Assembly (NCBI GenBank): GCA_051867875.1
Contig: JBJDZG010000012.1
Location: forward strand, 98-64,097
Reading direction: 5' to 3'
DNA: 64,000 nucleotides
Origin: Eubacteriales bacterium
GTDB taxonomy: Bacteria > Bacillota > Clostridia > Oscillospirales > CAG-272
The position numbers and the translations under genes are program-made. The notes under the pieces were generated by a model, which was not told the origin of the DNA, made no database searches, and saw only the letters and a list, made by a program, of their open reading frames with translations. Below are positions 27,985-42,884 of this stretch, piece by piece; within the stretch, counting starts at the first letter, position 1; every line of letters starts with the position of its first letter.

Positions 27985-28028
27985 TTTTGGTGCAAATGTG
28001 GTGCAAATCGACTTCAAAACCTACTTTT
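27985..28028 (+). repeat. Junction repeat copy A (doubled GGTGCAAAT unit plus TCGACTTCAAAAC)
   Basis: ttttggtgcaaatgtggtgcaaatcgacttcaaaacctactttt. It is near-identical to copy B at 41604 and shares the doubled unit with copy C at 42858. Confidence 0.8.
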
Positions 28029-28055
28029 TAGACGCAAAAATCATATAAAAACTGT

Positions 28056-28088
28056 CAAGCGAGTTCAGTGAACTCGCTTGATTTTTTG
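28056..28088 (+). terminator. Orphan terminator-like hairpin
   Basis: caagcgagttc / gaactcgcttg stem followed by aTTTTTTg. No intact upstream gene is present. Confidence 0.6.
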
Positions 28089-29626
28089 TTGAACTCTTTT
28101 ATCCTTCGTGGGTGTTTGTGCCGTGATGCGTTTCGCTATTAAGAATGACGCAAGCGGTTGTTTTGAACGTTCTCATCAAACTTTCTTTGAGGAGTTGATT
28201 TTGACTTTCTTGATAGCTGATGTAAAAGACTCCCGTTTCGTCTGACTTTTGCTCGCAGACGGCGCAGCTTATGATATGGGAAGAAGCGGAGTAGCATTTT
28301 CCTATGTTATGAATAGCGATTCCACTTCTTATCTTACCGAAAATCAGAGGGAGCTTGCATACGAGGCGGTAAAGGCGGCGTCTGATACTTCTGCAAAAGA
28401 GCAGGATTCTAAGATTAAGAAATCAGCTAACGGAAAGACCGGGCGTAAGATAGGAACAGTTAAGGGCGAGGGAGTAACTATCTCGGACCTTAAAAAAACC
28501 TTTAATGATACGCAGAATAAAGCTTATAAAACACTCACTACTATTGCAGAAGTTACAGGCATTGACATTGTACTGTATAAATCTGAGGCAAACGCTGACG
28601 GTGTATTTCAAGGTGCTCAGGGTAAATTTGATTGGTCTGACGATAAACTATATATAGACATTAACGCAGGTCTTAAAGATATAAACAGCGTTGATGACCT
28701 TGCAAAATACGCTATGCTTCGCACTTTTTCCCACGAATTTACACATTTTATTGAAAAATACAATTCAATATGGTATAATGAGTTTAGAAAAGTGGTGTTT
28801 GAAGAACTCACAACACGAGGAGAAAACGTTCACGATTTGATTGAGGAAAAGCAGGCAATGACAGAGGGAATGACCTATGAGCAGGCAAGCCGTGAAGTAG
28901 TTGCAGAAGCTATGACCGATATTCTTCCCGACTCACATTTTGTCGAAACTCTTGCAAATGAGCATAAGAATGTATTTGATAAGCTTCTTGAAAAGCTCAA
29001 GGAATTCCTTGCTGACATAAAGGCTTACTTCAATTCTATCGGGCACAACCGTTCAAAAGAGGCAAATGCACTCAAGGAGCAGGTTGGAGAAGCTGCGCAT
29101 TATGTGGATAACATTGTGAAGCTCTTTGACAAGGTCGCAGTAGAGGCTGTGGAAAACTATCAAAAGACAGTTGCTATTGATGAAACTAAAAATAATCCTG
29201 CAAAGATTACAAGTACAGAGTCAATAAATGCTGACAAAGATTCACAAAATGACATTAAAACTTCAAAAACCGAAAAATCACTCTATGATAAATACAGTGA
29301 TATTAAGAAAGAATACCCGAATAATATCGTGCTTTATCGTGTTGGAGATTTCTTTGAGGTCCTTGGTGATGATGCGAAAGCTGTTTCTAAATGGGCAGAC
29401 TTGACATTGACAAGCAGAAACGACCCCAACGCAGGTCGTGTTGATATGGTCGGCTTCCCATACCATAAACTTGAAAGCTTTATGGACAAAATCAGAAAGC
29501 ATCAGGACGTTACTCTTGTTCAAGAGGAAAATGGAGAAACAAAGGTTTACCCTATGGCTTCATTGGAAACTAAGAACACCGCAAAGACAGCGGAAATAAC
29601 AAATAATACTAACGGAGGTATTACAA

Positions 29627-29812
29627 ATGCAGAACGAGAAGAACAGCAAGCACATTCCACGAGCGTTGACACAGGAAGAAATTCAGGCGTTGAAAGTTCA
29701 TCGGGAAGAACACAAAAAGAAAATGGAAACCGACCCCGAGTACAAAAAACAATGGGAGAAGAAAACGGAGATTTTCAGGAAAACGACTCTGTACAACGAC
29801 TGCATAGACTAA
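29627..29812 (+). CDS. Nested out-of-frame small ORF (61 aa) within the first low-complexity linker of the polyvalent frame
   Basis: GGAGG (29614-29618) lies 8 nt before the ATG. The helical K/E-rich sequence is MQNEKNSKHIPRALTQEEIQALKVHREEHKKKMETDPEYKKQWEKK. Coding status is unproven. Confidence 0.3.
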   Translation: MQNEKNSKHIPRALTQEEIQALKVHREEHKKKMETDPEYKKQWEKKTEIFRKTTLYNDCID

Positions 29813-30412
29813 AAAATGACTATGCTCGGGTTTTAGATACCAATAATTATATAACTCCTGAACAAAACTCTGACTTGCATAAGGCTCAAAGCGAGTTAAC
29901 AAACGAATATGGTATTGAAACTCATATTGTTAAGAAGTCAGCTTGGAAGTTTGAAAAATCTAAAGCTGTAACATCGTCCGAGGGAAAGGTTTATATCGCC
30001 GAAGATATAGGGTATTATGACCTTAGAACTACGCCAACTCACGAGGGAACACACGCTATGAAGCGACTCGGCTTCAGTCCTTATTTAGAGTTTATCGGAC
30101 GTACGCCTGATGCGTTGAATGTAGCGTCAAAAGAATATCTTGACCTTATGGAAGCTATTGAAGAACATACAGGTATTGATGCTTTGGATATGAACGAAAA
30201 AGAGCGTGTTGATGTCTATGATGAATTGAACGCTACTATTTACGGATTCCACAAGGGCGGAATTTTTGACGACACCAAGTTTGAATGGAGTTGGATGAAG
30301 GAGGCTTTTTCCAGCTTTGATACCTATATTAATGAGCTTTCAGCAATACACGAGCAGTTTAAGGCAGAGCGAACAGGTAAAAAGGAAACAACCACAGAGG
30401 AGGTAAAACAAA

Positions 30413-30670
30413 ATGGCAAAAATGCTGATAACCGAGGCACAGTACAACAGTCTGACACCGATAGGCAGGGAGATCCACAAGTATTGGAAGGACTTCAAGC
30501 CGAAAATGTACAAGGAGATGTACAAAGAGGGGACGCTGTGGGAGACTCTGTCGAGCGAGGACAAGAGGTTGGACGAGATGATGTGTCAGATGGTAGCAGA
30601 ACAGGGACTCGCAGAAGATCAGGCGAGGGAGATAATCAAAGCGGAGATTTACGACGAGATGATGTATTAA
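30413..30670 (+). CDS. Nested out-of-frame small ORF (85 aa), TnpV-like pattern
   Basis: GAGGAGGT (30397-30404) lies 8 nt before the ATG. LTPIGREIHKYWKDFKPKMYKEMYKEGTLWETL...QGLAEDQAREIIKAEIY resembles, from memory, small TnpV-type proteins of clostridial mobile elements. Coding status is unproven. Confidence 0.4.
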   Translation: MAKMLITEAQYNSLTPIGREIHKYWKDFKPKMYKEMYKEGTLWETLSSEDKRLDEMMCQMVAEQGLAEDQAREIIKAEIYDEMMY

Positions 30671-30987
30671 CTCCCGAAGCTGCCGAAAAACTTCACGAGG
30701 AAGTAACAGAGCAGATTGAACAGCAATCTACTGAACTTCCCAAAGGCAAAAACTTTGTAATTGGCGACTCTCTTGACCTTCCCAACGGAGAAAAGTCAAG
30801 ATATAAGGCTAACGTTGAAGCAATAAGACTTGTAAAGAAACTTGAAGCTGAGGGCAGATATGGAACATTAGAATACTATTATCATCGAATACTTCATAAG
30901 AAAAGGCAACTACAACATTTTTGAAATAAACGAAGCTCTGTTTGCTTTTGATCAGAGCTTGTTAGGAGCATAAAGGAGTTTAGATAA

Positions 30988-41590: not shown

Positions 41591-41603
41591 AATTTAGTTT
41601 CTT

Positions 41604-41647
41604 ATTTTGTGCAAATTTGGTGCAAGTCGACTTCAAAACTACCTTTT
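41604..41647 (+). repeat. Junction repeat copy B
   Basis: attttgtgcaaatttggtgcaagtcgacttcaaaactacctttt begins 14 nt after the XRE gene stop. Confidence 0.8.
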
Positions 41648-41709
41648 ATTAATTCAGGACTAAAACCAAATAAAAATGCCATAAAATTAATAAATATTCC
41701 CTTAAAGTG

Positions 41710-41738
41710 TTGACAATACCCTTAAAATGTGCTAATAT
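41710..41738 (+). promoter_or_regulatory. sigma-A promoter of fic with flanking CCCTTAAA half-sites
   Basis: TTGACA, 17-nt spacer, TAATAT with an extended -10 TG. cccttaaa occurs at 41699 and 41719, with inverted tttaaggg at 41738. Confidence 0.6.
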
Positions 41739-41766
41739 TTAAGGGAACAGAGGTGAATTTAAGGCT

Positions 41767-42813
41767 ATGAGAACATTTAACTACTCAAAAATTAGTGAGC
41801 AAAAATGGGATTCAGAGCTTCTCGGCTTGGTTGCGGCTATATACAAGGAAGCGGGCAGGCAGGAGATGTTTTTGAAGCAACGTCCCGAGGAGCTTGAAAA
41901 GCTCGTCGAGATTGCAAAGGTGCAAAGCACCGAAAGTTCCAATGCAATTGAAGGCATTGTTACTACCAACACAAGAATCAGACAGCTTATCGAGAACAAA
42001 ACTACACCCAAAAATCGAGATGAACAGGAGATTGCGGGGTATCGCGATGTACTTAACATTATTCACGAGAGCTTTGATGCCATCCCTATTACGCCCAATT
42101 ACATTTTGCAGCTTCACAAAATATTGTATAGCCACATTAACAACCCTGCGGCGGGAAGAACAAAGAGTGTGCAGAATTATATCAGCGCAACCTATCCCGA
42201 CGGAACAACCGTAACTCTGTTTACACCGCTCAATCCGTTTGAAACTCCCGGTGCACTTGAAAGCATTTGCAATGAGTTTAATCGCGTTATCGGAAATTGT
42301 GAGGTTGAACCCTTGATTGCCATTCCGATCTTTATCCACGATTTTTTGTGCATTCACCCATTCAATGATGGCAACGGAAGAATGAGCCGTTTGCTTACAA
42401 CTCTTTTGCTTTACAGAAGTGGATTTTACGTTGGCAAATATATTTCTCTTGAAGCAAAAATAGCAAAAAATAAGGATTTGTATTATGATGCTCTCGGTCA
42501 AGCTCAAATCGGCTGGCACGAGGGAAATGCCGATGCCGTTCCGTTCATCAAATATCTGCTCGGCACGATACTTGCAGCTTATAAAGATTTTGAGGATAGG
42601 TTTTCTCTTGTGGAGGAAAAGCTTCCTGCTTTGGAGACCGTCAGACGCGCAACGATGCAAAAAATAGGCAGATTTTCAAAGCAGGATATCAGAGAGTTGT
42701 GTCCTTCGCTTAGCATAAGCTCCATTGAAGGTGCGCTTCGAAAGTTAGTTGCCGAAGGCGAGTTAAAGCGCGAAGGAAACGGCAAAAATATCCGCTATTA
42801 CAGAATAAAATAA
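41767..42813 (+). CDS. fic: Fic family protein (AMPylase-type) with N-terminal inhibitory helix and C-terminal wHTH-like tail
   Basis: The Fic motif HPFNDGNGRMSR is present. The auto-inhibitory [ST]xxxE[GN] motif is present as SNAIEG. Confidence 0.9.
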   Translation: MRTFNYSKISEQKWDSELLGLVAAIYKEAGRQEMFLKQRPEELEKLVEIAKVQSTESSNAIEGIVTTNTRIRQLIENKTTPKNRDEQEIAGYRDVLNIIHESFDAIPITPNYILQLHKILYSHINNPAAGRTKSVQNYISATYPDGTTVTLFTPLNPFETPGALESICNEFNRVIGNCEVEPLIAIPIFIHDFLCIHPFNDGNGRMSRLLTTLLLYRSGFYVGKYISLEAKIAKNKDLYYDALGQAQIGWHEGNADAVPFIKYLLGTILAAYKDFEDRFSLVEEKLPALETVRRATMQKIGRFSKQDIRELCPSLSISSIEGALRKLVAEGELKREGNGKNIRYYRIK

Positions 42814-42857
42814 CCACTAAACAAAAAATGGCACTCGTCTTTTGACGGGTGCTTTTG

Positions 42858-42884
42858 CTTGGTGCAAATTTGGTGCAATTTCTT
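42858..42884 (+). repeat. Junction repeat copy C (doubled unit only)
   Basis: cttggtgcaaatttggtgcaatttc lies directly after the fic terminator-like hairpin (gcactcgtc/gacgggtgc). Confidence 0.7.

Follow-up and report, generated by a model that had tools for sequence, protein, structure and literature searches.

The 3' end of rpsI in a Eubacteriales bacterium (GenBank assembly GCA_051867875.1, contig JBJDZG010000012.1) is followed by an island that carries no integrase of its own and that was in all likelihood built by site-specific insertion of small elements into this gene end. The island lies within the 64,000-nucleotide stretch of DNA analysed here, which is referred to as the window, and it contains three copies of a doubled motif, GGTGCAAAT, that are most likely arm-type integrase sites. 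In related contigs the corresponding attachment (att) sites have a lambda-type architecture, the spacing between doublet and core is conserved, and a tyrosine integrase occurs together with them. The comparisons also suggest that the integrase, rather than an excisionase or another factor, would be the protein that binds the doublet, and that the att copies of the window may still be competent for recombination.

Results

Three doublets of one orientation in the window

All three GGTGCAAAT doublets of the window are on the + strand, with starts at 27989, 41608 and 42861. Copy A (GGTGCAAATgTGGTGCAAAT, 27989-28008) is a left-arm doublet that starts 88 nucleotides (nt) past the start (27901) of the conserved 8-mer AGAGATAA within the core at the end of rpsI, and copy C (GGTGCAAATtTGGTGCAATT, 42861-42880) is a right-arm doublet that starts 137 nt before the start of the same 8-mer in a second core (42998). 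Copy B (TGTGCAAATtTGGTGCAAGT, 41608-41627) is a hybrid doublet, its left flank being of the right-arm type found next to the XRE gene and its right flank being of the TCGACTTCAAAAC-type left arm. A search with an 18-mer pattern that tolerated up to 3 mismatches gave four matches in the window, three of which are real, and 100 dinucleotide-preserving shuffles gave a mean of 0.15 matches, with none of the shuffles reaching four. No further doublet copies were found in the other 49 kb of the window.

Several descriptive claims of the first-pass annotation of this DNA are borne out by these results. The three same-strand copies are found where it had placed them, in a number that no shuffle attained, and the units that it had described as 10-11 nt apart have a measured period of 11 nt. 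Its statement that the motif has no dyad symmetry also agrees with our finding of no dyad at the doublets, which fold no better than shuffled sequences (z about -1 to +1). Each copy does lie 3' of a + strand unit, namely the hairpin after rpsI (A), the XRE stop codon (B) and the fic terminator at 42830-42853 (C), and the doublets adjoin predicted terminators but are never inside them. Sites of 70 nt, analysed on both strands, gave no signal of attC-like folding (z -0.3 to +1.1), and Rfam models gave no match at any of the three copies.

The sequences next to the doublets differ among the copies. A 50-nt block that includes TCGACTTCAAAAC is common to A and B at 82% identity and is absent from C. 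The TCGACTTCAAAAC-type flank on the element side of copy A (28008-28028, + strand) represents one left-arm sub-type, which is common to copy B and to the second left arm of the related locus L083 at 10884. A tRNA-derived origin of the motif, whose reverse complement ends in GCACCA, was ruled out because the motif is doubled and no tRNA lies nearby. A literature search for the motif string returned only unrelated primer and sequence matches.

Cores and arms delimit a composite island

The last 13 nt of rpsI, stop codon included (CTCAAAGAGATAA, 27896-27908, + strand), are repeated exactly at 42993-43005 on the same strand, and these two copies constitute the putative attL and attR cores. The second copy emerged from repeat searching combined with a comparison with relatives: a repeat search with a 14-nt minimum was too long for the 13-nt core, which was recognised once the relatives pointed to it. 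On the evidence of this repeat and of the comparisons below, the two cores bound a composite island of 15.1 kb (27909-43005).

The left limit was located by comparison with L001 and L002, in which RpsI is identical. The window and these two contigs match only through the rpsI stop codon plus TT (27910) and are unrelated thereafter. Because the strains diverge from 27910, the island begins on its left at the rpsI stop codon, which precedes copy A by about 80 nt, and the earlier assignment of copy A as the exact border between core genome and island has to be corrected accordingly; the right limit is the core at 42993-43005. L001 rejoins the window only at 43959, within a radical-SAM gene.

The left arm (27909-27988, + strand) consists of TTATTTCTTATTGGATATTATCAAC, a terminator hairpin (about 27934-27971) and then CTTTTTGCCAATTTTTCGATTTT. 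It is about 95% identical to the left arms of L083, L082 and L086, including those at internal junctions away from rpsI, and because the hairpin recurs at these internal junctions, it belongs to the element and not to rpsI. The right arm (42881-42992, + strand), which spans the about 113 nt between the end of copy C and the attR core, is 79% identical to L070 8650-8801. When six right arms were aligned, the sole invariant blocks were the doublet and the core (AAGAGATAA), the other columns being about 62% identical, and AAGAGATAA is likewise invariant at every junction in the relatives. A strong hairpin was predicted directly after the attR core (43001-43043); it is possibly the original rpsI terminator, displaced by the insertion.

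The right arm also carries a second conserved doublet, GATATGCAAC/GATATGTAAT (42900-42919 in the window), which every related right arm has as well and which may serve as a site for an excisionase-like protein or another factor.

Relatives share the sites and encode a tyrosine integrase

Relatives were found as contigs with homologues of the window XRE protein at 80-92% identity. They belong to an element family of uncultured Eubacteriales, represented by metagenome contigs, that inserts in the last 13 nt of rpsI. The plan of these elements is core, 88-nt left arm with its own terminator, doublet, cargo, doublet, 137-nt right arm and core. All intact related junctions read doublet, 137-138 nt, AAGAGATAA core, 88-89 nt, doublet, and the same core-doublet spacings are present in the window and in 10 related loci (left-arm spacing of 88-89 nt in L082, L083, L086, L087 and L089; right-arm spacing of 137-138 nt in L070, L071, L076, L082, L083 and L086-L089). 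Because arms of 137 and 88 nt flank the core, the internal junction of two elements amounts to an attP-like site of about 245 bp. No annotated phage or plasmid matched this junction in a BLAST search, and a search of IMG/VR with the left arm gave 0 matches.

The gene order in the relatives is a gene for a 63-amino-acid (aa) protein, a tyrosine integrase gene, DUF3990 and XRE, with the doublet 17-18 nt past the XRE stop codon. The integrase has 379-405 aa with PF00589, SAM_3 and Int_M matches, shares no more than 31% identity with known phage integrases, and has about 70 N-terminal residues ahead of its SAM-like domain, where Arm-DNA-bind_4 is a sub-threshold match. The 63-aa protein encoded upstream of it has a weak match to excisionases. 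The integrase is present in L070-L077, L082 and L084; it is a linked recombinase of the kind that the first-pass annotation had proposed to look for elsewhere, and it is encoded directly upstream of DUF3990-XRE. The same annotation had seen no cognate recombinase in the window itself, in agreement with our search for integrase homologues there, which found none (all E > 0.2). Homology of the window to the int-DUF3990 region of the relatives begins at 40190, a position 49 nt past their integrase stop codon. Because it starts only there, the integrase and excisionase genes have been lost, or replaced by the 12-kb cargo that now precedes DUF3990.

Three of the relatives, L083, L086 and L089, share the chromosomal neighbourhood of the window (MatE, S1, rplM, rpsI), and in these rpsI is directly followed by core, left arm, doublet, DUF3990-XRE, doublet, right arm and core. 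The window's right arm and copy C have their homologue in the XRE-adjacent arm of L070/L071.

The att sites of the family are of lambda type, the rpsI-derived core being flanked by arms with a GGTGCAAAT doublet apiece, at 88 nt on the right and at 137 nt on the left. As to mechanism, the doublets most likely serve as binding sites for the family's tyrosine integrase, through its N-terminal domain. Copy A is the doublet of attL and copy C that of attR, and copy B would be the remnant of an internal junction. Units that lack an integrase may have been moved in trans, or in cis as parts of composites.

Copy B resembles a deletion scar

Copy B begins 17 nt after the XRE stop codon. When set against the complete junctions of L083 and L082, it retains the XRE-side right-arm flank and the TCGACTTCAAAAC left-arm flank, whereas the about 245 nt of arm, core and arm between them are missing, and no core lies within 200 nt of it. 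Because the arm-core-arm segment between the two doublet flanks is missing, copy B is interpreted as a probable scar, left where a deletion took out the DNA between two directly repeated doublets. Such a deletion would have fused the DUF3990-XRE unit to the fic unit.

The fic unit (41640-42860, + strand) comprises a promoter with its -35 element at 41710, fic at 41767-42813 and the terminator at 42830-42853. It is 85% identical to L071 9242-10605, and this identity includes the terminator, doublet, arm and core. Homologues of fic at 93% amino-acid identity were found in three unrelated contexts, which share only the segment from promoter to stop codon, and no att arms or doublet were present beside them. 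The doublet was therefore ruled out as a component of the fic unit and is assigned to the att arms, because fic homologues occur elsewhere without it. The claim that B and C bracket a self-contained fic cassette was accordingly right as to positions, promoter and terminator, but the doublet is not intrinsic to the fic unit and B appears to be a deletion hybrid.

The three promoter-fic contexts (L066, L067/L068 and L069) place the gene beside an OLD-family ATPase and UvrD, beside serine and tyrosine recombinases and among core genes by a tRNA. The fic promoter of the window (41699-41745) contains CCCTTAA twice plus TTAAGGG.

Units with limits at the cores are gained and lost independently

A DUF3990-XRE unit of 1.76 kb without an integrase gene is about 100% identical from core to core at two kinds of location, behind rpsI (L086/L089) and behind an int-DUF3990-XRE element (L082/L087), and the flanks of this identical unit are unrelated on both sides. 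Four different right flanks were seen. Past the XRE site, L070 contains methyltransferase, flavodoxin, NUDIX and other genes and lies upstream of spoIIAA as in the window; L071 contains fic, MerR and a major facilitator superfamily (MFS) transporter, L076 contains small genes, and the window contains fic. The occupants directly behind rpsI differ among L001, L002, L083 and L086. The first-pass annotation had asked whether the content between sites varies, and both the differences from strain to strain and the 1.76-kb unit in its unrelated flanks answer that it does. The comparisons show that units have evidently been gained and lost independently, with their limits exactly at the cores.

An array of such sites is present in L076 (8658-14742), where, within 6 kb, no fewer than five full att-like sites and two partial ones separate one to three small unrelated genes. 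The sites of this array have a conserved 69-nt block, AAATTCCAATTTGTCGAGCTGAATAGGCGTTGAATGTTGGTGTGATTTT, ahead of the doublet, and the partial sites are fused to left-arm terminators. A search of IMG/VR with the 69-nt block gave chance matches only.

The motif and other rpsI occupants elsewhere

The pattern GTGCAAATNTGGTGCAA was found in 50 IMG/VR stretches (L004-L053). The large open reading frame (ORF) nearest to the doublet encoded a tyrosine integrase, within 700 bp, in all of the first 10 stretches tested and in at least 9 of a further 24. The doublet mostly precedes int directly on the 5' side, with the same orientation, and often comes after a terminator, like copy A; many of these doublets have a third or inverted GGTGCAA unit, have a terminator just before them and are near contig ends. 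They adjoin very different tyrosine integrases, with either SAM_5/Arm-DNA-bind_5 or SAM_3/Arm-DNA-bind_4 domains, and this diversity hints that the arm-site preference is widely shared. Searches of GTDB species genomes and Joint Genome Institute (JGI) metagenomes with the extended form of copies A and B, GTGCAANTCGACTTCAAAAC, gave chance matches in coding sequences only, none of them with a doublet, and no doublet copies were present in 20 kb of a sister strain.

Other sequences occupy the same position in the strains that diverge behind rpsI. The insert that adjoins the rpsI stop codon in L002 (3620-3760) opens with a terminator. About 96 nt from the core comes a doubled TGATGTCCGT (3660-3679) with a period of 11, followed by an A-rich tail and one more terminator. 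This insert has an architecture like that of copy A with a different 10-mer, and it is the picture to be expected of arm specificities that have diverged. In L001 (10424-11990), the segment behind rpsI contains a 137-aa ORF and, in 10518-10672, six TCGATAT/ATATCGA units, of which the first three are direct and the last three inverted; this contig keeps only the last approximately 150 bp of the radical-SAM gene.

Cargo and neighbouring genes

Upstream of the insert the gene order is rplM-rpsI (rpsI at 27486-27908, + strand), and the island follows directly. The cargo of about 12 kb (28029-40189, + strand) encodes an 891-aa protein with an isolated MutS domain I, an ArsC-like protein, a GH31 protein, an InlB-repeat protein and a 925-aa ORF, and its GC content is mixed. 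The 891-aa ORF (28249-30924) is the first cargo gene, and MutS domain I (residues 347-425) is its sole recognisable domain. The 925-aa ORF has no Pfam match and contains an internal direct repeat near both of its ends (37216-37345 and 39745-39886, about 75% identical). The ArsC-like protein was used as a probe for the context of the cargo and returned only a 1.3-kb contig of the same strain.

The DUF3990-XRE module (40190-41590, + strand), which is toxin-antitoxin-like, consists of DUF3990 at 40294-40986 and an XRE gene with a helix-turn-helix (HTH) domain at 40952-41590, as assigned with Pfam, and it is 90% identical to L070/L071 7239-8674. An exact 23-nt repeat with a palindromic centre, AAACTATCACTATAGTGATATAA, is present at 40191-40213 and 40245-40267, over the DUF3990-XRE promoter, and is probably the XRE operator. 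The repeat is single in L083 (about 9290-9315) and also occurs upstream of fic in L071 (about 9197-9215).

On the 3' side of fic, the window encodes a radical-SAM protein and then spoIIAA-spoIIAB-sigF. Among radical-SAM homologues on long contigs, the closest, with 85% identity, lies in L078 (1-14335), where its surroundings are an unrelated mobile element encoding HamA plus a helicase (Hachiman-like) as well as a relaxase and an integrase. Because this homologue sits in a mobile element, the radical-SAM gene of the window may itself be old mobile cargo; for the same reason, radical-SAM homologues were uninformative as a route to an empty site. Flavin mononucleotide (FMN) and S-adenosylmethionine (SAM) riboswitches are present in the window at 8795-8912 and 9842-9927, both above the Rfam gathering scores.

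Discussion

Comparison with known att sites, rpsI elements and integrons

The P1/P2 and P'1-P'3 sites of lambda attP and the DR-2 repeats of Tn916 are arm-type sites of heterobivalent tyrosine integrases. The sites described here resemble lambda-type att sites in that the core is taken from the target gene, that the attP-like junction measures about 245 bp, that both arms have short direct repeats spaced by one helical turn and at fixed distances, and that a xis-int pair adjoins the sites in the relatives. They differ in that the GGTGCAAAT doublet and the arm layout are specific to this family and that the window has no integrase. The proposal of the first-pass annotation, that these were att-type or arm-type sites or element ends through which cassettes were serially captured behind rpsI, is upheld by the fixed distances of the doublets to the core, by the integrase of the relatives and by the differences in content from strain to strain; the crossover site would be the core, the end of rpsI, and the doublet an arm element.

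Insertion into the rpsI 3' end is documented for the tyrosine integrases of streptococcal ICEs (integrative and conjugative elements) and IMEs (integrative mobilizable elements) (PMC4701971, PMC5090054). IMESag-rpsI and the streptococcal rpsI ICEs are likewise elements with a tyrosine integrase that insert in the rpsI 3' end and restore the gene end, and that carry a Cro/CI-type regulator and a toxin-antitoxin module (PMC5090054, PMC4701971). Unlike them, the present family has no detectable sequence relationship to those elements and has no relaxase or oriT that we could see, and its units are 0.6-1.8 kb long compared with about 9 kb there. Decay to cis-mobilizable elements (CIMEs) that lack an integrase, and tandem accretion, have also been described (PMC5704250). 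As in the CIMEs and accretion products of ICESt1/ICESt3 in Streptococcus thermophilus, the integrase has been lost while attL and attR are kept, elements are stacked in tandem with internal att sites, and deletions occur between repeats (PMC5704250). Like a CIME, the window has retained att sites, no integrase, tandem units and strain-variable content; in contrast to CIMEs, a unit of the present family may consist of one gene, and five or more units may be arrayed together (L076). Site-specific accretion at rpsI was thus already known, and the island of this family is a new example of it.

There is also a likeness to integrons, in which a tyrosine recombinase gene lies beside an array of promoter-poor, mostly single-gene units that each end in a conserved site and share one orientation. 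The sites described here differ in being double-stranded and of lambda type, with arms and a gene-derived core, rather than hairpin attC sites. Against integron models, the integrase of the relatives scores 56 bits with TIGR02249 (cut-off 265) and 38 bits with NF011946 (cut-off 435), and its Pfam architecture is phage-type. To our knowledge, classical integrons are essentially unknown in this phylum.

Alternative roles of the doublet

An integron-like cassette system in which the doublet itself is the crossover site, with B and C as recombinant sites around fic, would account for the exact bracketing of fic by B and C, for the fact that the left side of B and the right side of C together rebuild the single XRE-adjacent site of L070, for the position of the hybrid junction of B within the doublet, and for the single-gene units arrayed between doublet-containing sites in L076. 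We nevertheless consider it unlikely, as all intact junctions contain the full succession of doublet, 137 nt, core, 88 nt and doublet, and a direct junction of doublet to doublet was seen only at B. The comparison of identical units places their limits at cores and not at doublets, the identity with the rpsI target resides in the core, and the sites are without an attC-like fold. Marginally less credible again is a role of the doublets as operators for a transcription factor of the island, either XRE or an excisionase-like protein, that controls read-through or cargo promoters. Direct repeats in tandem every 11 nt are also compatible with winged-helix regulators and with recombination directionality factors, the XRE stop codon is just 17 nt before copy B, and the cargo promoters have doublets upstream. 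However, the XRE module already has an operator-like palindromic repeat of its own at the promoter, a fixed distance to the core on both sides is a property of att arms, and the IMG/VR doublets adjoin integrases, the integrase being the only neighbour examined there and DUF3990-XRE not having been looked for.

The location of every copy in an intergenic region after a gene end would also fit a genome-wide intergenic repeat resembling repetitive extragenic palindromic (REP) sequences, a small RNA, a 3' untranslated region (UTR) element or a chance repeat. This we regard as very improbable, since no shuffle reached the observed count, no Rfam match or significant fold was obtained, zero copies are present in the 49 kb of flanking core sequence and in the 20 kb of the sister strain, and in the relatives the motif is tightly linked to cores and integrases.

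Arm-type integrase sites in an island built by insertion at rpsI thus remain our preferred explanation, and several observations weigh against it. No significant match to a Pfam arm-binding domain was obtained in the integrase of the relatives (E = 0.06), and the doublet might instead be the target of an excisionase-like protein or of a host factor. Neither the attL of an integrase-bearing relative nor an empty rpsI site was recovered, and no complete autonomous element was seen from core to core. The 13-mer CTCAAAGAGATAA occurs exactly a third time in the window, at 20948-20960 inside a conserved coding region; this copy, which L001 also has, is without arms or doublets nearby and is probably there by chance, although it weakens the statistic for the core. 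The 12-kb cargo may not have arrived as a single element, and the integrase count at the IMG/VR doublets was made without a scrambled-motif control for comparison.

A more far-reaching possibility, which we put forward tentatively and hold to be less likely than its opposite, is that xis-int-DUF3990-XRE behind rpsI is a standing gene-capture platform. Mini-elements of 0.6-1.8 kb, without an integrase but with complete att sites, would be integrated, stacked and excised by it in trans, and the window would represent such a platform minus its integrase.

Implications

The analysis turns an unexplained repeat into a map of an island with two cores, two arms and one apparent deletion scar. The signature of a core with doublets at 88 and 137 nt is a tool for finding such islands and mini-elements in uncultured Clostridia. 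Very small units, such as a toxin-antitoxin-like pair, fic or single small genes, can act as discrete integrative units without an integrase of their own, which bears on the spread of defence and addiction genes among gut bacteria. If the arrays are active, they would constitute an integron-like capture system made from ordinary phage-type recombination parts, and if the capture-platform reading is true, gut or rumen-type Eubacteriales would possess a functional analogue of the integron that operates on double-stranded arm-plus-core sites.

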